Below, in pieces: positions 8,090 to 16,717 of a DNA stretch of 64,000 nucleotides. The notes under the pieces are model-generated. The model was not told the DNA's origin. It saw only the letters and a program-made list of their open reading frames with translations, and did not search any database. Source of the DNA: Nitrospirae bacterium JdFR-85 (GTDB lineage: Bacteria; Nitrospirota; Thermodesulfovibrionia; Thermodesulfovibrionales; JdFR-85); contig MTOU01000007.1 of assembly GCA_002011745.1 (NCBI GenBank), forward strand, positions 30,036 to 94,035. Reading direction: 5' to 3'. Each line of letters starts with the position of its first letter. Positions within the stretch are counted from its first letter, which is position 1. Position numbers and translations under genes: made by a program.

Positions 8090-9132
8090 TTAGGCTGATT
8101 CTAAAGCCGCAAACCGATTGTCAGATAAATATAAACGCCAGTAATCATCAACCGCACTACTCTGAGCCTCTCTGCGGGCATCATCAATATCATCTTTGTA
8201 CCTCGATAATGTTGCAACAATTTCAAGACCAAATGCAGAATTTTCTGCCATTTGTAAATTATACGCAAAGCTTTCTGTGGCTCAAGCCCTTTATGATATG
8301 GCCAATCTTCAGTAAGAGCTGGTATACACATCTGCTACAGCCATTATTCTGGAACCAAGAGATAGTTTGTCCGCTCTATAATGAAAGGAAGCCCACTTGT
8401 TAATGTACTAAAATCTTTGATCCTTTGCAGCAAAGTATATGTAAAGTATGTATGGCTTCTTATAAGTTCATACCCCTTTCTGGTTATCATACTCCTTTCT
8501 GGTTAATTTATCAAGGTTTTTCTAAAATTCAGTAGGAACAGCGAGTTTACCCAAATCATGAAGATAGCCTGCTACTTGTAGCAATATGACATTTTATATC
8601 TGAAAATCCAGCTGTTTTAGCCAGCTTTTTACTCACAGCAGCAACTCCACTGGAATGGATTGCTGTAAATCGACTTCTAAACTCAATTATATAAGAACTA
8701 ACCCTATGTTTGAAGCAAGAATGATCTCAAGTTTCGATGAAACTATATTAAGCCAAAAATATTCTTTCTGAGCAAAATCTAAGAAAATTTTCTACTAACT
8801 CGGGGTAAAGTCTTATCTGTGAGAAGAGTCATATGTCTTAAGCAAGTTATATCTAAGTTCTGCATGTTTATGAGGATTTTTGATGTCGAAATGGAGGGTA
8901 TCCAATCGTTCTTTTAGTGTATAGGATATCGCTCCAATATCATGTAAAGACGCAGCAATAAATATCTCTTGTTGTTCTTTAAGAGAACAACCATACTCTT
9001 TGGCTATATTCAAAGCAATATATGCAATTCTTTGTGATAAGTGGCTATCTTTGGACTAATACAATCTACTGCTTCAGAAAGACTCATTATCAGATCAAAT
9101 AACGAAATTCTTGTTTCTCTGTTATTATCCAT
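8090..9132 (-). pseudogene. decayed tandem-HD-domain (HD-GYP-like) phosphohydrolase gene with at least 5 frame disruptions
   Basis: Minus-strand translation runs MDNNRETRISLFDLIMSLSEAVDCISPKIATYH, then shifts to QRIAYIALNIAKEYG...ASLHDIGAIS...HR*. Further shifts give IEFRSRFTAIHSSGVAAVSKKLAKTAGF, then QVAGYLHDLGKLAVPTEF*, then LDKLTRKEYD. Later pieces read ..ALTEDWPYHKGLEPQKAL and the end is ..NRFAALESA*. The parts lie in different frames separated by stops. Confidence 0.75.
8468..8505. repeat. 19-bp tandem direct duplication inside the HD-GYP-like pseudogene
   Basis: tcatacccctttctggtta (8468-8486) and tcatactcctttctggtta (8487-8505), 18/19 identical. The length is not a multiple of 3, so it shifts the frame. 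Confidence 0.9.
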
Positions 9133-9215
9133 TCCCTCCTCTACACTCTAAATAATTATTTTTTAAAAGCTTTTAAACAGTTTATTCAACCCACTTTAAT
9201 ATTGTAATATATAAA

Positions 9216-9611
9216 ATGAGCAATTTCTGGGATAATTGGGCAACAACCCATAGAAACTGGAAAGTAATAATTAGTGTAATCGGATTGCTGGGAATATTTA
9301 TATGGGCCTTAATCTTGAAGTATGAGTCTTCCTCAAAAAAACTTTTGTCTATTAAACACGAAAAGGCAGTGGTAAAAAAAATAGAAAAACTGGATCTTAG
9401 TAAAGTCCCAAGCAGATTCGGCACAAACGAGGGAGCAATACTTTACAGAGGAATTCTGGAATTACCTGATGGAACCGAAATCAGGGTTGTGCTTGTACCT
9501 CCTATACCTCAAATAGGTGACAGAGTACCTCTTTTGGTTGAAAACTATGATGATGGAACTACTTTTTATGAAATAGATAGAGAGAGGTGGCAGACAGGAG
9601 AACCCTTCTAA
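9216..9611 (+). CDS. hypothetical single-pass membrane protein
   Basis: 131 aa. One N-terminal TM segment (VIISVIGLLGIFIWALIL) followed by a small soluble domain. I recognise no family. Confidence 0.55.
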   Translation: MSNFWDNWATTHRNWKVIISVIGLLGIFIWALILKYESSSKKLLSIKHEKAVVKKIEKLDLSKVPSRFGTNEGAILYRGILELPDGTEIRVVLVPPIPQIGDRVPLLVENYDDGTTFYEIDRERWQTGEPF

Positions 9612-9649
9612 AAGACCTTCTTTCCTGCGAACAAAGAATCATAATGATA

Positions 9650-10018
9650 CTATGCTGACAAAATCACTGCTAAAACAGCTATAAGACCAAGTACAAATGC
9701 AAGAAATCCCAAAACATGTGTTTTGGTTGGGCTACTGTAGACTGTATCAGTTAACTCTTTATTGATATCACCTACATCCTCCAAGGCTTTAGTTAAATTA
9801 GGCAGGCGTCTATGCCAGATCTGCTGACTTTTATGATAACGTCTCATTGCTGATCTCGGCTTGAACATCAACCATATTCCTCCTATAGCAAAAATAACTC
9901 CTGTAACAAGGACAGCAACCTTTTCATTTGTCTCAAACTGCGCTTCTATAATCTGTCTAAGCACTACAACAATAATTATAGCTGTTGCATAAGCAATAAT
10001 CTTCTTAATTAATCTCAT
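9650..10018 (-). CDS. hypothetical 3-TM membrane protein, translationally coupled to the upstream papain-fold protein gene
   Basis: 122 aa with three hydrophobic segments. Its ATG overlaps the stop of 10015-10911 by 4 nt. Confidence 0.6.
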   Translation of the reverse strand: MRLIKKIIAYATAIIIVVVLRQIIEAQFETNEKVAVLVTGVIFAIGGIWLMFKPRSAMRRYHKSQQIWHRRLPNLTKALEDVGDINKELTDTVYSSPTKTHVLGFLAFVLGLIAVLAVILSA

Positions 10019-10911
10019 AATACTGAATCTTTAATCTTGGTCTTGGCTTTAATACCAAATACAGAGCCTTTAGAGGATTCTTCAATTTTTTGAATAATCA
10101 GAGGCAGCATCAAAATCAGAGGAATAATCCATATAGCATAAAAGGAACTCTTCTCTATAATCCATTTTTTTATATTACAGTATTCCTTTACTCCCTTTAG
10201 TATCCTATTTCCTTCCTTTCCATATATCTCAACCAACCTTAAAAGTGGTATGAAGGTTCCTACTTTTATAGCATGATCACTATAATCTAACTTGTCTTTA
10301 TAGTAACTCACAATAAGAGAAGGAGTTTTTTCGATTTGTGCAATATCATATGGAATTATAACTCCATAATCACCATCAAGAATCCACCATTTATCATTCT
10401 TAACTTCAGCCATTGCCACTACATGACCGGATAGGGCCACAATTCTACAGGGGACTTCTTTCTCCTCTAATATTCCGCATATTACAATTGCATGTTGAGA
10501 GCAGAGACCAACTCCACGTTCGAGTGCAAGCCGGTAGTCACAAAACTCGTATTTCTTGAAAACCTTTGGCATAAAATAGCTGGCCATAAAAAGCAGATAG
10601 TTCTTATAAAATGGCACTGTTAAATTATATTTAAATCGTCCATCGTCTCTCCAATAATGAGCCATATTTTTATTTACTGCAATCACTAATTTTCTGAAAA
10701 AATCTTCTCGGTCGGTTATCTCCTCATTCAAAATGTCACTAATAAGATATTCATAGGATCTATCTATATCGTTCTTAAAAAACACATGTTCTTCTTCATA
10801 TATTGCTTCATTTTTAAAAGGCATAAAAAGGCCATAAATATTTATTATCAAGAGTATGAGACCTATACTGAAAGAAATTTTTATTATTGAATAATTAAGC
10901 CCTCTTTGCAT
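10015..10911 (-). CDS. membrane protein with papain-fold (transglutaminase-like / C39-like) Cys-His-Asp peptidase domain
   Basis: 298 aa with N- and C-terminal TM segments. GLCSQHA (10489-10509) is followed by SGHVVAMAEVKNDKWWILDGD (10402-10431 covers SGHVVAMAEV). This gives the ordered Cys..His..Asp of papain-like or transglutaminase-like folds. Confidence 0.6.
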   Translation of the reverse strand: MQRGLNYSIIKISFSIGLILLIINIYGLFMPFKNEAIYEEEHVFFKNDIDRSYEYLISDILNEEITDREDFFRKLVIAVNKNMAHYWRDDGRFKYNLTVPFYKNYLLFMASYFMPKVFKKYEFCDYRLALERGVGLCSQHAIVICGILEEKEVPCRIVALSGHVVAMAEVKNDKWWILDGDYGVIIPYDIAQIEKTPSLIVSYYKDKLDYSDHAIKVGTFIPLLRLVEIYGKEGNRILKGVKEYCNIKKWIIEKSSFYAIWIIPLILMLPLIIQKIEESSKGSVFGIKAKTKIKDSVL

Positions 10912-11037
10912 CTTTTAACAACTCATTTCTGCTCTTCTGAAAATTTACAGACTCGCTATACAAAAACAATAAATGAGAACAGAGGGCTATGTCAAATCTT
11001 TCAATCCATCTTTTCCTCTCCATATTCATTTTAAATA

Positions 11038-11072
11038 GTGAGAAAGGGAAGCAAGGATTGCTTCCCTTTCTC
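11038..11072 (-). terminator. very strong hairpin 2 nt after the stop of the 709-aa C25-like gene
   Basis: TGAGAAAGGGAAGCAA-GGA-TTGCTTCCCTTTCTCA, perfectly self-complementary 16-nt arms. The minus-sense tail is ACTATTTAAAAT, only a partial T-run. Confidence 0.6.
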
Positions 11073-11074
11073 AG

Positions 11075-13204
11075 TTAAACTCTTATCTTTCTTTCAATAA
11101 ATCGATAGCCTGGAGCTGAAAAACACACAGAAACACTGCGAGGTCTTGCCCCCAGCCTTGGATTAAGCAATTTGAGATTCTTTAAGGGTAGCTTTATCTG
11201 TGTAGATGAAGTTTTTATTGTCTTGAGTATCCTATCTCCTTCAATAATGGTGATAACACTATCCTTCGGAACTTCGCTTAACTGAATAAGTAGATATCTA
11301 TTTCTTATTAATTTAACTATAAGACTAATAACTTTCGGAGATGACTTCCACAATTCTAAAGTAGGATCACCTATCACGTGATAAATTTCTAAATGATCCT
11401 TAACACCAGAATTCAGACCGTGTGCTACAAAAAGATACATCTTTGCATAGTTTAAAATATCTCCTAAACGATTATGCTTAATTGCATAACTGGCTGTAGT
11501 GCCGGGATAAGTAGGAATTACTCCAGGAAATAGAGCATCAAATAAGCCTTTTATCAGACTATCATTACGCCATGTCCCTGATACTCTGGTAGCTGCAATA
11601 AGTGAAGGAGCACCACCTTTCAGTTTCAACATAGCTTCTGCAAAGCTATCACTGGCTGCAGAAAGATCAAATCTTCCTGTTAAACAATTAATTGATAGAA
11701 AGATGGACGGATAGGCACTTGTTATAGCATCCAGGTTATCATTTGTAAAAGAAGGATGGGTCCATCCTGTAGAGTCTCCATGATCTCTATGTCCAACCAT
11801 CAGTTGTCCTTCTGCTGTTTCCGAAATAAGCATTTCTGTGGCTGTATCATCATCTACTATCGCATTTTTTACTTCAGGCGGCACATTAGTACCATCTTTG
11901 TATTGCTGAGGATTTGGATTGTTAGACACATATACCCGCTGTACCTCTTTCCCTATTGAAACCAAATGACTTCGTATGGCTTCCATTGTTTTAATATAAG
12001 CTCGATCTGCCTTACCATCTTGAGGATAATCATCCTGAAAGTAGGCTGCAACTGTCATTCTTTCATAATATAATGGATCACAAGGTGGAGTTTTTTCATA
12101 ACCTATGATCTGCTCTACCACATCTTGGGCCTCTTGTATAGTTTGTACAGGAATCCTTCCTATCGCAATCCACGGTGCTACACAGTCAGAACTATTTGAA
12201 GGGTCTTTTGGTGTGGAGTAATAGTAATCAGTAGCATTACCCGATACATTCTCTGTCACTATATGATTTGTATCACCAAACAATAGAACATATCGAAGTC
12301 TTGAAAAACAATGTTTCCTTTTATCTCTGATAAACTTTTTTATCTTATCTACTGTATTGCCAATATTTTTTATATCCACAATCTGCGTAGATATACCTTT
12401 GGTCCTCTTCCACTTGGACAGCTTTTCTGCAGCAGCTTTAAAGTTACTATGATATATAATGATAAATTCTGGTATAAATAGATATGGTGGTATTTCAATT
12501 AATGGTTTAATCACTCTTGCAGCCCCCCAAACTAACTTTCTCCTCGGGTTAAGTAAAAGATTACCAAAGCCTTCTCTTTCAAGTTCTGGATCTATTAAGG
12601 CAAAATCCCCCCTTTCATCTACATCGTCTTTTGATAAAAATTTAATAGTGATTGTTATATTTCCATATCCTCTGATTTTATGTTTAGCTGGATTGAATTG
12701 AAGAGGACATATTTCAACAAGGACAGCATTATATCCATCAACATCTTTTGGATCACTAATCTTTACAATATCCTTTGGATAAAACTCATCCTTTTTATAT
12801 GCTTCTTCATCAAACTCGAACTCGTGTTTTTCTTGACCATCCATGGCCTCTTCTTGAGCAGGAGTCACAAGGATATCATCAAAGATTACCTCACTTCCTT
12901 TCTCTACATTAACCTCGAGATTACAACCTTGAGGTACATTAACAAATCTTCTGAATACTGGCATAAGCGGTTTACCACTTTCTGAAACAAATCCTACACC
13001 ACTAATACCAACCTCCTTAAAGGAATACTTCTTGCCCTTAACATCTCGCTCATCATCTGAAAGATCAAACCCTGGAAAGATACAGGATATAGTAATATAG
13101 GTCTCTTCTTCTTTTACATCAATAATAGGTTCTGATCCATCAATTTCGATATCAAAATCATCTGAAAGTCCTGATGCATCAAGTGATTTAAATTCTTTTG
13201 CCAT
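11075..13204 (-). CDS. peptidase C25 (gingipain)-like clan-CD cysteine peptidase homologue, no signal peptide
   Basis: 709 aa, AAGGAGG RBS. The N-terminal region resembles a C25 propeptide (..LVEICPLQFNPAKHKIRGYGNITITIKF). The catalytic region has RYVLLFGD, IGRIPV, GHRDHGD (11774-11794) and SINCLTG (11675-11695). The N-terminus MAKEFKSLDASGLSDD is acidic and non-hydrophobic. Confidence 0.75.
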   Translation of the reverse strand: MAKEFKSLDASGLSDDFDIEIDGSEPIIDVKEEETYITISCIFPGFDLSDDERDVKGKKYSFKEVGISGVGFVSESGKPLMPVFRRFVNVPQGCNLEVNVEKGSEVIFDDILVTPAQEEAMDGQEKHEFEFDEEAYKKDEFYPKDIVKISDPKDVDGYNAVLVEICPLQFNPAKHKIRGYGNITITIKFLSKDDVDERGDFALIDPELEREGFGNLLLNPRRKLVWGAARVIKPLIEIPPYLFIPEFIIIYHSNFKAAAEKLSKWKRTKGISTQIVDIKNIGNTVDKIKKFIRDKRKHCFSRLRYVLLFGDTNHIVTENVSGNATDYYYSTPKDPSNSSDCVAPWIAIGRIPVQTIQEAQDVVEQIIGYEKTPPCDPLYYERMTVAAYFQDDYPQDGKADRAYIKTMEAIRSHLVSIGKEVQRVYVSNNPNPQQYKDGTNVPPEVKNAIVDDDTATEMLISETAEGQLMVGHRDHGDSTGWTHPSFTNDNLDAITSAYPSIFLSINCLTGRFDLSAASDSFAEAMLKLKGGAPSLIAATRVSGTWRNDSLIKGLFDALFPGVIPTYPGTTASYAIKHNRLGDILNYAKMYLFVAHGLNSGVKDHLEIYHVIGDPTLELWKSSPKVISLIVKLIRNRYLLIQLSEVPKDSVITIIEGDRILKTIKTSSTQIKLPLKNLKLLNPRLGARPRSVSVCFSAPGYRFIERKIRV

Positions 13205-13476
13205 GGTTTTACCTCCTTTCCCTTTTTCTTAGGATTAGGCAATTCTAAAGAAGTTTTTTCAGTAATTTTTCAAATACACAAACATCACCTCCCTTCTCAC
13301 CTTCGGATTTATCAATTGATATGTACCCGTAAAGAAAAAACTATCCGGAATCCTACAATAGACGGAAATCCTTGTGTGTTGAAGTGGTTTTTATTTCAGT
13401 TATTTTGCTATGATAGATTTTTTATACTTTACTCCTCTTTAATCCTTATATTCCCTCCACTAAGTATTGTTTAATT

Positions 13477-15141
13477 CTAAATCGTAAATCTAAAATACGA
13501 CCATGGTGACCAAGAACACATCTGTCCATCAACTTTTGCCCGAACTCGCCATCTCCCACGCTGTGCCCCAACAAAAGTAATATCAAGTGTATTGGTTGTA
13601 ATATTGTGATAGTTAAAACACCACCTACCTGTTTCTTCAGCCCATGTACCTGTAAAATAATCAACTTGAACATGATATTTTACCTTAGGTAGATTTACAG
13701 GGTCCCATCTGAGCTGTATTTTCCTAGGCCAGTGATCAAATACATCTTCTTTCTGCGGCTGCTTTAATTGTGGTACAACACCTTTCCACCACGTTAAAGT
13801 AGGGTCACCAAGTAGAACAAGTCCATAAAACCATTGACGTTCCCAGAGTTCATGATTAGGTCCCCGAGCTTTCCACCAGTCTACAAATGCATCTCCGATA
13901 CATTTACCCTGTCCTAATGGACGATAAAAATCTTCAAAGAAAAGCATCGATCCTGACTTAGCACTTGCAATTGCAACCAAACCAAGATTTTTACCACCAC
14001 CAACTTTATCGAAGATATACCAACCAGCTAAATAGTCAGGCGTTGTAAACTTGCCTGGTCCACAGCAAAATAAGTTAAAGAAATGAGAATTAGGTGGATT
14101 AGTATCTCTGAAATAAGTCGTTTGGACGTATTCGTTCTTACTCCCCACTCTTAAAGCATGTCCATGTGTCCAGGAATGTGCACATAGCTGAACCCAAGAA
14201 CGTAAGGAATTAACCTCTGCTTTGTAAAGATCAGCATCAGTAGTAGTAGGATCCGTGTACTTTGTAATTACCGATGCAGGGAACATCATATCAAAGGCAC
14301 AATCATCAAAACTTTGCCAATCATCATCCACAAAGGCAAGTGCTGAACGTGCATGACCTAACATTCCAAGACGGAATTTATGATTACGAGCAAAGTAATC
14401 ATTAATAAGAGATGCATCATTACCACCTGCAGTTGGAGTCCAAATGCGTCCTACCCAGATTTCTGGACTTAAGTTACCACTGTGATCATTAAATTTACCA
14501 TTACCATCAGGGTCACTCCACGTACCATTGGTATCCATATAATATAGATCACAAGGGAATTCAGAGTGCACACCGTGGAAATCATTAGCAAGCTCAAACC
14601 AGGGCACAGGAATTGCGCCAACTAACAGTACTCCTACGGGTCTGTATCGTTTAATATATGAACGAATATCATGTGGCGTTCCACCGCTAACCACATGAAT
14701 TGTTGCCCAGTAACCATCTCGTCCTACGTCAAGTACATATTGATCAATACTATTAGAAACTGCATTGTAGACAGCTCTATCAACCAATATAAGTAGATCT
14801 CCATTGGGATAATGACGTCTTGTCTTTCTGTTTAAGTAGGCTTCATCGCGAGGAAATCTTGGACGCCGTTTCCGATCAACTCTAAATTTTGCTTTAATCA
14901 ATTTTTTGTATTGTTTAAAATAATCAGCAAACATTTGATGTTTAATTGGTTTTTCAGAACGGAACTCAAGATTTTTAATATTAGCATAAGCTGAGGCAAG
15001 CTTGTATTCTTTAGAGAATGCTTTAAGATTAATAATCGTTCGGTCTTTCACCACTTCTCCTCGCAGAACTTCACCTTCTATTAATTTTTGACCCTTCTCA
15101 CAAATCAGCCTATGCTTCCAACTATTTTCTTTTCTTATCAT
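13477..15141 (-). CDS. C25-like / clan-CD cysteine peptidase homologue with basic N-terminal region and Fn3-like C-terminal domain, no signal peptide
   Basis: 554 aa, TAGGAGGTG RBS. Motifs: GVLLVGAIPVPW, VGRIW, CAHSWTHGH (14158-14178 covers HSWTHGH), FNLFCCGPG (14053-14070 covers FCCGPG) and LLGDPTL. The last ~90 aa are W-rich and beta-sandwich-like. Confidence 0.65.
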   Translation of the reverse strand: MIRKENSWKHRLICEKGQKLIEGEVLRGEVVKDRTIINLKAFSKEYKLASAYANIKNLEFRSEKPIKHQMFADYFKQYKKLIKAKFRVDRKRRPRFPRDEAYLNRKTRRHYPNGDLLILVDRAVYNAVSNSIDQYVLDVGRDGYWATIHVVSGGTPHDIRSYIKRYRPVGVLLVGAIPVPWFELANDFHGVHSEFPCDLYYMDTNGTWSDPDGNGKFNDHSGNLSPEIWVGRIWTPTAGGNDASLINDYFARNHKFRLGMLGHARSALAFVDDDWQSFDDCAFDMMFPASVITKYTDPTTTDADLYKAEVNSLRSWVQLCAHSWTHGHALRVGSKNEYVQTTYFRDTNPPNSHFFNLFCCGPGKFTTPDYLAGWYIFDKVGGGKNLGLVAIASAKSGSMLFFEDFYRPLGQGKCIGDAFVDWWKARGPNHELWERQWFYGLVLLGDPTLTWWKGVVPQLKQPQKEDVFDHWPRKIQLRWDPVNLPKVKYHVQVDYFTGTWAEETGRWCFNYHNITTNTLDITFVGAQRGRWRVRAKVDGQMCSWSPWSYFRFTI

Positions 15142-15442
15142 TTTTCACCTCCTATATAATTGCTCCCCTCTTGTGAAAAGATTATTAACCTGACCAGACA
15201 TTATAAAAACACTTTTTTATCAATATCAGTCCTCTCAATCAATGGAAATTTACTCCCTCCTTCAACCTCTTCTTTTCCTCGCTTTTATATCCTGTTATTG
15301 GTAGGATTTACTACCCATTTTTAACTTGCTATGATATCTGACAAACTTCCCCCTTTATCTTTCTGTACATAAAATTACTCCTTTACAAAGAAACTACAAA
15401 ACTTTTACTCTTCCCTCCCTTTAATTGATCAAAATTGATTAA

Positions 15443-15471
15443 ATTATATCATGAGAAATGAGGGTTGTCAA
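15443..15471 (-). promoter_or_regulatory. consensus sigma70 promoter driving a leader of roughly 295 nt for the 554-aa C25-like gene
   Basis: Minus-sense TTGACA (15471-15466), a 17-nt spacer, then TATAAT (15448-15443). Both hexamers match consensus perfectly. Confidence 0.65.
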
Positions 15472-15667
15472 GATAAAGTTTTTTATTCTTGTTTGTCCTC
15501 AGATAAAGACTCAATATCTCCAAAATTGCTACAATGGTTGCAGTTGACATTTTTATGCCTTTTTCTATCTTTTAACAGAAAAGTTAGTTTTTCAGCAAGC
15601 TTGAAATTACAAAGTCTCTAAAGATGATTTCATTATTTGCCGATATGATTAACCAGAGGCACAAGAA

Positions 15668-16717
15668 ATGATATTCAGAGTATTTGAGAAAGAGGAACTA
15701 AAGAAACTCGTAGAGTTGCTCATTGCACACAACAGGGTTGTTGGGCCTGTGGAGGCAGGAAAGGACAGCAGTGGCATACCCATTTATGCATTTGGTGAGA
15801 TCTTTGAGTTCAAGGACCTCAGGCTGAATTATACTACCACAAAACTATCAGCAAAAAAGTACTTCCTGCCATTTAAGGAAGAATTGGCAACCTTCAGGAT
15901 GGATACCATGAACTGGCAGAAGGAGATCAATTACAATGTGAAAAGCCCCCTGATACTGTTTGGTCTCCATCCCTGTGATATAAATGCATTGAATAAACTC
16001 GACAAGGTCCTTATTCACAGTGATTATCCCATGCCCTATTATCTTGCAAAGAGGAAGAACACATTCATAGTAGGTGTCAATTGTGAACCACAGCCATCAT
16101 GTTTCTGCCGCTCTATGGGTACTGATACTGCCATGCATGGATTTGACCTATTTATTACTGACCTGGGGAATAGGTATTTTGCAGAGATCCATACTGACAC
16201 AGCATATAATTTCTTAAAACACATTAAAACTACTGAACCATGCGAGGATGATCACGTCAGGTACATGAAGATCGTGAGTGAGAGGAATAAAAAATTCGTC
16301 ACCTATGTGGACACCACGGATCTCATGAAGATACTCGATATGGAATTCCAGTCAGAGGTGTGGAAGCACTGGGGTGACAGGTGTCTTGCCTGCGGGACAT
16401 GCTCAAGTGTATGTCCGACCTGTTACTGTTATGGGGTTGAAGAGAGTGTGGATATTGATCTTAAAAGAGCAAGGAAGCTCAAGATGCTCTATTCCTGTAA
16501 TCTCATAGACTTTGCTGAGGTAGCAGGGGGACATAATTTTCGTCCTGAGAGATCCACACGGCTTAAATACAGGTATTATCACAAACACAGGGGGTTTGTA
16601 GAGGCCTTTGAGGAGTCCCTATGTGTTGGTTGTGGCAGATGTGGTGAGGCATGTCTTGCAGAGATAAGAGTCCCTGATGTGATAAACAGTGTACGGTCCA
16701 ATGGGGTGAGGGTATGA
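15668..16717 (+). CDS. sulfhydrogenase-type [NiFe] hydrogenase beta subunit (AsrA-like 4Fe-4S protein)
   Basis: 349 aa with CLACGTCSSVCPTCYC and CVGCGRCGEAC ferredoxin-type motifs. It is the first gene of a 4-gene overlapping operon. Confidence 0.8.
   Translation: MIFRVFEKEELKKLVELLIAHNRVVGPVEAGKDSSGIPIYAFGEIFEFKDLRLNYTTTKLSAKKYFLPFKEELATFRMDTMNWQKEINYNVKSPLILFGLHPCDINALNKLDKVLIHSDYPMPYYLAKRKNTFIVGVNCEPQPSCFCRSMGTDTAMHGFDLFITDLGNRYFAEIHTDTAYNFLKHIKTTEPCEDDHVRYMKIVSERNKKFVTYVDTTDLMKILDMEFQSEVWKHWGDRCLACGTCSSVCPTCYCYGVEESVDIDLKRARKLKMLYSCNLIDFAEVAGGHNFRPERSTRLKYRYYHKHRGFVEAFEESLCVGCGRCGEACLAEIRVPDVINSVRSNGVRV

Follow-up and report, generated by a model that had tools for sequence, protein, structure and literature searches.

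The family C25 peptidases (MEROPS, clan CD) include the gingipains RgpB and Kgp of Porphyromonas gingivalis, which consist of a prodomain, a two-subdomain catalytic region and an Ig-like domain, and which carry a signal peptide, a type IX secretion (T9SS) C-terminal domain and haemagglutinin/adhesin domains. They also include PorU, the sortase of type IX secretion, and secreted multi-domain C25-like proteins of environmental bacteria, mostly of 400-2100 aa with an N-terminal signal. C25 genes in anoxic sediments are usually interpreted as coding for exported nutritional enzymes (PMC6752024). Clan CD further contains the caspase-like death and defence proteases of prokaryotes (C14 orthocaspases, CHAT-EAD and standalone forms). 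These carry no signals, are found patchily and seem to have spread by horizontal transfer. Effector-associated domains (EADs) are covered in PMC7159879, and PMC12642450 describes a caspase-like defence protease of the standalone kind; neither mentions C25.

We analysed a window of 64,000 nucleotides from Nitrospirae bacterium JdFR-85 (contig MTOU01000007.1), which encodes two C25 homologues of 709 and 554 aa. Like the caspase-like proteases, they belong to clan CD, lack signals and have a patchy distribution with apparent horizontal transfer. They differ in family (C25), and no EAD, STAND NTPase, sensor or effector partner is encoded in the window. We give about even chances to a joint reading in which the block around these genes is composite, the C25 pair is dispensable and its products are latent intracellular clan-CD proteases.

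A dispensable C25 pair beside resident genes

The earlier note described the block as a single AT-rich island of three peptidase folds. Its five open reading frames were verified, with the same coordinates and strands (table 1), and the AT-richness has a counterpart in GC3: the 709-aa (0.239), 554-aa (0.268) and 298-aa (0.288) genes have the three lowest values among the 53 genes of the window (mean 0.397, s.d. 0.059). The unity of the island did not survive the analysis of co-conservation. In a sister genome (L065), 88-92% identical to the window in nucleotides, the order of the 298-aa, 122-aa and 131-aa genes and of the hydrogenase operon is conserved, and 66 bp take the place of the segment with both C25 genes and the consensus promoter. 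The hairpin is still present there, as is a relic of the 709-aa gene, its last ~9 codons. Because this relic persists, the absence of the pair from L065 is a deletion. Hence, the block is composite, with resident membrane-protein genes (9216-10911) next to a dispensable two-gene C25 cassette (11108-15563). The adjoining HD-GYP gene, previously called dead, is indeed a pseudogene: it is split across frames and misses residues 101-172 relative to the intact 433-aa copy of L065.

Table 1. Features of the C25-bearing block (positions in the window).
Feature	Position	Strand	Basis or remark
131-aa single-TM protein	9216..9611	+	hydropathy; conserved in sister genome
122-aa three-TM protein	9650..10018	-	hydropathy; resident neighbour
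298-aa two-TM transglutaminase-like protein	10015..10911	-	hydropathy, family alignment; resident, outside the C25 cassette
Perfect 16-bp hairpin, 3-nt loop	11039..11073	-	directly after the stop codon of the 709-aa gene; kept in L065
709-aa signal-less pro-gingipain-like protein	11075..13204	-	ORF, Pfam, AF2/Foldseek, alignment
Segment replaced in L065	11108..15563		both C25 genes and promoter; 4456 bp
Spacer between the two C25 genes, 272 nt	13205..13476	-	ends in strong SD GGAAAGGAGG for the 709-aa gene
554-aa signal-less divergent C25-like protein	13477..15141	-	ORF, Pfam, alignment, AF2/Foldseek
Promoter, sigma-70-type TTGACA-17-TATAAT, 12/12, extended TG	15443..15471	-	~300 nt before the start of the 554-aa gene

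The resident genes largely fit their first description. Hydropathy recovered the proposed numbers of transmembrane (TM) segments in the 131-aa and 122-aa proteins, and the 298-aa and 122-aa genes, which overlap by ATGA, are translationally coupled as suggested. These two genes were found together only in close relatives (L065, L066 and L067). The 298-aa protein had been proposed to be a membrane protein with an ordered Cys-His-Asp domain, and its family has the residues of transglutaminase-like/DUF553 membrane proteins: C137 and H163 are invariant and D179 nearly so. Transglut_core (PF01841) is matched by 11 of 24 relatives and DUF553 (PF04473) by 9, whereas the window protein itself falls below the Pfam cut-off for Transglut_core (0.014, 16 bits versus 23). 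A sequence search for a solved relative of this protein found none. The 131-aa protein had no match in a family-profile search, and its gene, which is divergent, belongs to the local backbone like the other two.

The earlier note also considered a surface-processing or cross-linking module with the papain-fold protein as partner. In such a five-gene system, the C25 proteins would work together with the transglutaminase-like membrane protein and the small protein coupled to it. The genes do adjoin physically, four of them lie on one strand and low GC3 is common to them. Yet homologues of the 298-aa, 122-aa and 131-aa genes occur near C25 genes in none (0) of the other loci fetched, a hairpin separates the 709-aa and 298-aa genes, a promoter-like site (10995 to 10966) precedes the latter, and a Winogradskyella member of the 298-aa family adjoins AsnB, GT2 and Wzy genes, a polysaccharide-synthesis context. 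Since the sister genome has the three resident genes without the C25 pair, these genes stay away from C25 loci elsewhere and the C25 genes are themselves seldom adjacent, neither the single island nor the surface-processing module finds support, and we grant the five-gene system next to no probability. The 298-aa protein is unrelated to the C25 genes, and the latter, two genes inherited separately, do not form one system with the membrane-protein genes.

A pro-gingipain-like protein and a divergent C25 protein

The 709-aa protein has the modules of a gingipain: a C25 prodomain (residues ~30-195), a linker (194-241), a two-subdomain catalytic region (247-618) and an Ig-like domain (~625-709). 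Its proposed assignment to C25, with a propeptide region, is borne out by Pfam, alignment and structure. It matches Propeptide_C25 (4.4e-18) and, over the full length of the model, Peptidase_C25 (1.6e-53). Residues H475, C507 and D548 align with Kgp His444, Cys477 and Asp516, the last being the S1 aspartate of Kgp. The AF2 model (pLDDT 86) matches RgpB in Foldseek (E = 5.5e-26, TM 0.81 over 482 columns), and the prodomain matches that of Kgp (5mun_A, TM 0.80). However, identity to gingipains is only 15-18%; a signal peptide and a T9SS tail were looked for in the 709-aa protein and neither was found, haemagglutinin/adhesin domains are lacking, and the gene stands alone in anaerobic bacteria and archaea without T9SS. 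PorU is its sole NCBIfam match (1e-26) and also a Foldseek match, but the score (93 bits against a family cut-off of 420) concerns the catalytic region only and T9SS context is absent. The motifs previously singled out, GHRDHGD and SINCLTG, correspond by back-calculation from the ORF coordinates to residues 471-477 (11774-11794) and 504-510 (11675-11695). H472, H475 and C507 are invariant in the family, as is a GNxxxNPxR motif (basic NPRR) within the linker, which is predicted to be disordered. The N-terminus is acidic, as noticed before (net -9 in the first 40 aa), and hydropathy gave 0 TM segments. We propose that the 709-aa protein would be a latent zymogen with an inhibitory-type prodomain and a flexible linker. 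The prodomain would be removed at the linker with its conserved basic motif, and the freed enzyme may cleave after Arg or Lys.

The 554-aa protein is more divergent. It matches Peptidase_C25 at 9.5e-8 (32 bits, cut-off 23) and 37 of 50 relatives match PF01364, in agreement with its proposed membership in clan CD. An N-terminal extension of ~110 aa precedes the catalytic domain (~155-449) and a C-terminal Fn3 domain (~455-554). The latter, anticipated from the sequence, was found by Foldseek and is strongly conserved in the family. HSWTHGH and FCCGPG also lie where reported (residues 322-328, 14158-14178; residues 358-363, 14053-14070). H322, H328 and C360 are invariant and placed after consecutive strands in the AF2 model, where pLDDT near the dyad is 53-75 and all 50 Foldseek matches listed concern the Fn3 domain. 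The first 110 residues are as basic as described (net +19), although the family is not in general so strongly basic (median +6, range -10 to +19), and the protein has 0 TM segments by hydropathy.

With a profile of the catalytic domain (positions ~110-450), 951 cluster representatives were recovered at E ≤ 1e-30. An N-terminal hydrophobic signal is present in 105 of the 149 new representatives listed, one representative has a dockerin, and eight of nine scanned match PF01364 (E = 1e-10 to 3e-4), several almost over its full length. The catalytic domain is thus common to the secreted multi-domain C25-like proteins, whereas the 554-aa family has a conserved ~110-aa extension in place of the signal, a fixed length and an Fn3 end. 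It is a branch, without signal, of a superfamily whose members are mostly secreted, and has lost the signal.

Distribution and predicted location

More than 120 matches were listed for each C25 gene, with family identities of 52-82%. Among the matches listed, members of the 709-aa family have ~705-715 aa and at least 52% identity, those of the 554-aa family ~551-559 aa and at least 61%. Both families are patchy in Desulfobacterota, Chlorobi, Cyanobacteria, Planctomycetota and Acidobacteriota, and occur in archaea (Methanosarcina, ANME-2, Theionarchaea, Thor- and Promethearchaeota), mostly in sediment metagenomes. No homologues were found in viral contigs or plasmids.

The lack of signals is as well established from sequence as the families, architecture and catalytic residues of both proteins. 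Searches for Sec, Tat and lipoprotein signals, TM segments, T9SS tails and sorting motifs found none in either, and an N-terminal hydrophobic signal is present in none of 240 members of the two families, bacterial and archaeal. The absence of signal peptides reported for the window is therefore real and family-wide. The starts are not mis-called, since N-termini are conserved across the family, with no hydrophobic stretch. Since Sec, Tat and lipoprotein signals, TM segments and T9SS tails are missing from every family member, we infer that the two C25 proteins work intracellularly as regulated proteases of the caspase-like kind, with stress, death or conflict responses as their probable setting.

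An alternative is that both serve the nutrition of sediment anaerobes as extracellular proteases that degrade detrital protein. Their release would then be signal-independent, for example through vesicles, through lysis or by way of an export signal that goes unrecognised in the conserved N-terminus. The sediment origin of the families and the signals and dockerin of the superfamily fit this alternative, as do secreted hydrolases encoded near C25 homologues: EEP with signal (L047, L061), a GDSL lipoprotein (L025), trypsin with signal (L071) and an S8 peptidase (L076). So does the Fn3 or Ig-like domain of each protein; such domains are more usual in extracellular proteins, which counts against an intracellular location. 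In addition, C25 peptidases dominate the predicted exported peptidases of anoxic sediments (PMC6752024). Yet the signal-less and conserved N-termini of all 240 members, the lack of T9SS tail, TM segment and sorting motif, and closest clan-CD neighbours that are likewise signal-less make this alternative rather unlikely.

Gene neighbours

Flanking genes vary by genome and nucleotide similarity ends at the ORF ends. Both C25 genes are accessory, and neither has a conserved partner. Relatives of the 554-aa gene repeatedly adjoin other caspase-like peptidase genes without signals (C11, C14, CHAT-EAD7) in same-strand arrays. For example, one locus has a C11-C14-554 array, none with signals (L071), and others a signal-less C11-u394-CHAT/TPR-CHAT/EAD7-554-serpin array (L032-34/L046; partial in L056 and L060). 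A C14-PEGA gene adjoins a 709-aa homologue (L075). Counting against a role in defence or death, such a context is absent altogether from many loci (L003, L004, L072 and L074), PADLOC gave no match, and viral contigs and plasmids yielded no homologues. The idea of intracellular caspase-like effectors, raised in the earlier note, survives, and the C11, C14, CHAT-EAD7 and serpin genes beside 554-family genes lend it some support.

Other neighbours evoke peptide maturation. If the C25 folds had transpeptidase or ligase activity, as PorU and legumain-type cyclases do, they would mature a peptide product instead of degrading proteins. PorU, a C25 sortase, is a structural match. In L071, a radical-SAM/SPASM-PqqD gene is located 1 kb downstream from a 554-aa homologue, and in L072 genes for PqqD and a nucleotidyltransferase are found near another. 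But the RiPP-like genes of L072 are on the opposite strand, no precursor-peptide or maturase gene is conserved beside either family, and both C25 genes are mostly standalone, all of which makes this role very improbable.

Expression and linkage of the two C25 genes

Strong Shine-Dalgarno sites precede both C25 genes, and no intrinsic terminator was predicted in the spacer between them. The hairpin at the end of the 709-aa gene, a perfect one as first reported, is likely a terminator. The two genes are likely co-transcribed from the consensus promoter, in a unit that would end at this hairpin.

Such a unit could encode a cascade, a special case of the regulated intracellular proteases that we favour, in which the 554-aa protein, as initiator, would remove the prodomain of the 709-aa executioner zymogen. 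We consider this improbable. Informative loci have the two genes side by side in only 1 of 32 and 1 of 11 cases, a 554-aa homologue 82% identical to that of the window has no 709-aa gene downstream (L013), and the 709-aa family is standalone in complete genomes. Gingipain zymogens (RgpB, Kgp) are, moreover, capable of self-processing. The prodomain and basic linker motif of the 709-aa protein, the probable co-transcription and the frequent adjacency of 554-family genes to other clan-CD peptidase genes are nevertheless in line with a cascade. So is an unrelated contig (L025) where homologues of the 554-aa and 709-aa genes (71% and 49% identical) have the same order and strand as in the window.

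Layout and composition of the locus

The five open reading frames that the earlier note had described were recovered with matching coordinates, and translation reproduces the His and Cys motifs quoted from the two C25 (gingipain-like) proteins, called 709 and 554 after their lengths. Hydropathy gives one transmembrane segment for the 131-aa protein, three for the 122-aa protein and two for the 298-aa protein, but none for 709 and 554. The 298-aa and 122-aa genes overlap by ATGA, in agreement with their supposed translational coupling, and a 16-bp perfect hairpin does lie 3' of the 709 stop codon. The block had also seemed AT-rich: the third-position GC content (GC3) of the 709, 554 and 298-aa genes (0.239, 0.268 and 0.288) is indeed the lowest among the 53 genes of the window (mean 0.397, s.d. 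0.059). However, the 298-aa gene is a resident that is conserved in the sister genome. Hence, low GC3 alone is here no evidence for recent acquisition.

Strong Shine-Dalgarno sites precede both C25 genes. A promoter with 12/12 consensus and an extended TG was found ca 300 nt 5' of the 554 start, and no intrinsic terminator was predicted between 554 and 709. The ca 300-nt leader of 554 contains a 13-codon open reading frame (MYRKIKGEVCQIS) with its own SD-like AAGGAG, which may be there by chance since the leader is not conserved among homologues. Six 554 homologues resemble one another upstream only in the Shine-Dalgarno site, and Rfam gave no credible match to a leader RNA or riboswitch in positions 8500-16000 of the window. 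The nearby HD-GYP gene is a pseudogene: relative to the intact protein of the sister genome it is split over two frames, has lost residues 101-172 (ca 190 bp deleted) and is only 51% identical in its C-terminal part.

Features of the window and of loci fetched from other genomes.
Feature	Sequence	Positions	Strand	Description
HD-GYP pseudogene	window	8093-9132	-	
131-aa gene	window	9216-9611	+	resident, membrane protein
122-aa gene	window	9650-10018	-	resident, membrane protein
298-aa gene	window	10015-10911	-	resident, membrane protein
Hairpin	window	11039-11073		
709 gene	window	11075-13204	-	C25
709 linker	window	12482-12625		residues 194-241
554 gene	window	13477-15141	-	C25
Leader ORF	window	15328-15369	-	13 codons
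Segment absent from sister genome	window	11108-15563		both C25 genes and promoter
709 homologue with transposases	L001	4804-14627		Desulfothermus naphthae
554-709 pair	L025			also in window
C11-554 pair	L060			
C14-PEGA	L075			beside 709 homologue
Clan-CD array	L071	5041-13403	one strand	C11 (P-domain), C14 caspase, 554, unknown 262-aa, radical-SAM/SPASM-PqqD, XendoU-LTD
Protease array	L034	3426-13116	same strand	C11, unknown 394-aa, CHAT-TPR, CHAT-EAD7, 554, serpin; also L032, L033, L046, partly L056
NPCTTxPCLPG protein	L027	12138-12473		directly 3' of 554 gene
NPCTTxPCLPG protein	L030	2281-2637		directly 3' of 554 gene
NPCTTxPCLPG protein	L047	11728-12003		directly 3' of 554 gene
NPCTTxPCLPG protein	L048, L049, L050, L051, L061, L064			directly 3' of 554 gene
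NPCTTxPCLPG protein	L021		opposite	upstream of 554 gene
Antisense ORF	L037	445-2364		opposite 554 gene
Antisense ORF	L042	1445-3289		opposite 554 gene
Antisense ORF	L044	5940-7466		opposite 554 gene
Antisense ORF	L040	10043-11497		opposite 554 gene

A dispensable C25 pair beside resident genes

The idea that these genes form one co-conserved island with three cysteine-peptidase folds did not survive comparison with other genomes. A contig of the sister genome GCA_054045905.1 (L065) aligns collinearly with the window (88-92% nucleotide identity). It presents the same hydrogenase operon, followed by the 298-122-131 genes (with a 298-aa homologue 94% identical), the HD-GYP gene in intact form (433 aa), DUF3187 and a TonB receptor. 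The 4456 bp with both C25 genes and their promoter correspond there to 66 bp. In L065 the hairpin is still present, and so are, in diverged form, about the last nine codons of 709 (FIKMKIRI versus FIERKIRV, each followed by a stop). The pair was therefore lost by deletion in the L065 lineage, not gained by insertion in that of the window. Whichever direction the indel took, the C25 pair is dispensable and the 298-aa, 122-aa and 131-aa genes persist without it. None of the three has a homologue in any fetched locus with a C25 homologue. Apart from the window, a single unrelated contig (L025) has the two C25 genes side by side in the same order. Among informative loci this amounts to 1 of 32 for 554 and 1 of 11 for 709, and a 709 gene is missing downstream even of the 82%-identical 554 homologue in L013. 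These patterns led us to reject a five-gene system. The annotation of the window should be corrected to a dispensable two-gene cassette adjoining unrelated resident genes.

The borders of the cassette carry no mark of a mobile element: we found no meaningful direct or inverted repeats flanking it and no nearby tRNA.

The 298-aa protein had been described as having an ordered Cys-His-Asp, papain or transglutaminase-like domain. Among 24 relatives C137 and H163 are invariant and D179 is nearly invariant, but the protein's own score against Transglut_core (PF01841), 16.1 bits, is below the cut-off of 23. Eleven of the 24 relatives match PF01841 (best 3.5e-5) and nine match PF04473/DUF553 (best 4.5e-6). 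This is a separate and widespread family of membrane proteins of ca 270-300 aa, whose member in Winogradskyella adjoins AsnB, GT2 and Wzy genes. Sequence and profile searches of the PDB gave nothing usable for it.

Two C25 proteins of unequal resemblance to gingipains

The assignment of 709 to the C25 family was fully borne out. It matches Peptidase_C25 (PF01364) at 1.6e-53 (182.8 bits for a cut-off of 23) over model positions 1-374 of 374, and Propeptide_C25 (PF08126) at 4.4e-18. In the phmmer alignment to Kgp (residue numbers were converted from the printed alignment), the catalytic dyad is retrieved, with H475 on His444 and C507 on Cys477, and D548 aligns with the S1 aspartate Asp516. All 56 relatives aligned share H472, H475 and C507. 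The AF2 model (pLDDT 86, pTM 0.89) has the caspase-haemoglobinase fold of clan CD according to Foldseek, with RgpB (1cvr) matched at E 5.5e-26 and TM 0.81 over 482 columns that comprise the catalytic and Ig-like domains. The prodomain matches 5mun_A and 4ief_A (E ca 1e-12; TM 0.80 with the Kgp prodomain and 0.69 with that of RgpB), and further matches include Kgp, PorU, separase and caspases. The linker between the prodomain and the catalytic domain is disordered in the model and carries a motif, GNxxxNPxR, of which G214, N215, N219, P220 and R222 are invariant in the 56 relatives. The motif is a candidate site of docking or of activation cleavage, which would plausibly occur after the Arg. 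Such a site would suit a cascade in which 554 activates 709, a minor alternative given that it concerns two genes so rarely found together.

The C25 assignment also stands for 554, at a lower score: it matches PF01364 at 9.5e-8 (32.1 bits, cut-off 23), with residues 155-449 on model positions 45-372. Among 50 relatives, 37 match this family at E ≤ 1e-3, and no other family was matched. H322, H328 and C360 are invariant. In the AF2 model (pLDDT 79, pTM 0.86, but only pLDDT 53-75 for residues 260-400), H322 and C360 each come after one of two consecutive strands (E316-321 and E354-359), as expected in clan CD, and by interpolation their positions in PF01364 are about those of H475 and C507 in 709. 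The C-terminal ca 100 residues form an Fn3 domain. The 50 listed Foldseek matches are all to Fn3 and do not confirm the catalytic domain. PDB sequence searches with 554 gave no match, and sequence and profile searches of the PDB with one distant relative gave nothing usable. Direct profile-profile alignment (hhalign) of the 554 and 709 families was also tried as evidence of homology and discarded: it covers only the N-terminal subdomain, with a probability of 4-10%, and remained weak when 50 distant relatives were added to the 554 profile. Because of this weak match and of the lack of a PDB sequence match, the putative clan-CD fold and dyad of 554 are rated only as likely.

A profile search with 554 among 1.84 billion representatives retrieved 3669 clusters, 951 of them at E ≤ 1e-30. 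These proteins of 400-2100 aa have only the catalytic domain in common with 554. An N-terminal hydrophobic signal is present in 105 of the 149 new representatives listed for this superfamily, and eight of nine scanned distant representatives match PF01364, several over nearly the full model. Taken together, these predictions make the 554 family an offshoot without signals of a C25 branch whose members are mostly secreted. The very basic N-terminus of 554, in turn, was rejected as a family-wide feature.

Distribution and loss of export signals

The 709 and 554 families are separate, strongly conserved and scattered. More than 120 relatives were listed for each: those of 709 (700-730 aa, 52-81% identity) come from Desulfothermus naphthae, Prosthecochloris, Methanosarcina, ANME-2, Theionarchaea, Thorarchaeota, Cyanobacteriota, Planctomycetota and others, and those of 554 (545-572 aa, 61-82% identity) from Desulfobacterales, Cyanobacteria, Acidobacteriota, Promethearchaeota and others. 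Gene neighbourhoods differ completely between genomes, and nucleotide similarity among C25 loci ends at the boundaries of the open reading frames. Neither family was encountered on viruses or plasmids: viral contigs yielded one distant partial match and none for 554, and on plasmids there were only distant relatives, PorU and a hypothetical protein. In D. naphthae, an 80%-identical 709 homologue has transposase genes (IS110 and IS91) and an integrase gene on its flanks, and a PIN/Phd toxin-antitoxin pair lies nearby. This context looks like a mobile island and is unrelated to that of the window.

The earlier note was right that signal peptides are missing. No N-terminal hydrophobic stretch was found in the C25 proteins of the window, nor in any of 240 relatives (maximal 12-residue Kyte-Doolittle mean 1.56), and N-termini are conserved across relatives, which shows that start codons were not mis-called. 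No Por_Secre_tail, T9SS tail, other sorting domain or transmembrane segment was detected in 709 or 554. The absence of predicted signals is thus a trait of both families. This differs from the characterised gingipains and PorU, which have an N-terminal signal peptide and a T9SS C-terminal sorting domain. The gingipain family is known for secreted virulence and nutritional proteases and for a secretion sortase. The latter activity, and the match of 709 to PorU, bring to mind a transpeptidase role for the C25 proteins, which we regard as a minor alternative. The folds and families are known; what seems new is that export signals are consistently lost in two families of bacteria and archaea that keep the catalytic machinery, one of them with its full zymogen architecture. 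The literature search retrieved no paper on signal-less C25 proteins.

Possible functions and gene neighbours

The most likely reading of these features is that the window carries a dispensable, bicistronic cassette encoding two latent intracellular gingipain-type proteases, beside unrelated resident membrane genes. Its main rival is that the proteins are released without a signal and act as nutritional proteases in sediment (PMC6752024); the secreted relatives of 554 are compatible with it, and the uniform loss of signals in both families fits better with proteases that stay inside. If the C25 proteins do act inside cells, regulated proteolysis by prokaryotic clan-CD enzymes would extend past the C14 and CHAT families, and counts of C25 genes as extracellular peptidases in sediment metagenomics would change. 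Whether they do is directly testable, as the families have cultured carriers (Desulfothermus naphthae, Prosthecochloris vibrioformis and Methanosarcina sp.).

Genes of the 554 family repeatedly share a strand with genes of other signal-less clan-CD peptidases. The array found in L034 and similar loci, whose products all lack signals, has the appearance of a conflict or death module made up of several proteases and an inhibitor of its own. The L071 array also lacks signal peptides. Other loci contain EEP nucleases (some with signals), patatin, TPR, amidohydrolase or S8 genes, or nothing suggestive. As a pointer to C25 function, the clan-CD neighbourhood is therefore suggestive and not decisive. 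EAD7 is an adaptor domain in NTPase-based conflict systems (PMC7159879), and we found it only on the CHAT protease beside 554 homologues in L034 and L056. Membership of the EAD/NTPase systems (Kaur et al. 2020, PMC7159879) would call for an EAD on the protease and a cognate NTPase or core component close by, whereas the proteins of the window and their neighbours have neither domain. Two papers, on conflict-system EADs and on a standalone caspase-like defence protease (PMC7159879, PMC12642450), do not mention C25. The anti-phage defence profiles of PADLOC-DB v2 returned no match for the 131-, 298-, 709- and 554-aa proteins, and only weak matches to transmembrane segments for the 122-aa protein (E 0.016 and 0.018). 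It is a rather unlikely possibility that signal-less C25 zymogens belong to the prokaryotic caspase-like death or defence proteases, as a branch so far overlooked. They would be single-gene or loosely clustered intracellular executioners, spread horizontally among bacteria and archaea (including Asgard) and sometimes arrayed with C11, C14, CHAT-EAD7 and serpin, and in the window one of the pair might activate the other.

All-against-all clustering of open reading frames in 64 loci gave mostly shadow ORFs within the anchor genes as conserved neighbours. Very long antisense ORFs (484-639 aa) opposite 554 genes in some contigs were classed with these and are probably not genes. The one real recurrent neighbour is a small conserved protein (ca 80-137 aa) with the motif NPCTTxPCLPG, encoded downstream of a 554 subclade in about 9 of 52 554 loci and absent from the window. 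Two copies (L047 and L027) had no match in Pfam. Some copies have a lipoprotein signal, and that of L064 has a signal-like N-terminus and, by eye, an apparent T9SS-type C-terminal tail. Its role could be that of inhibitor, substrate or partner.
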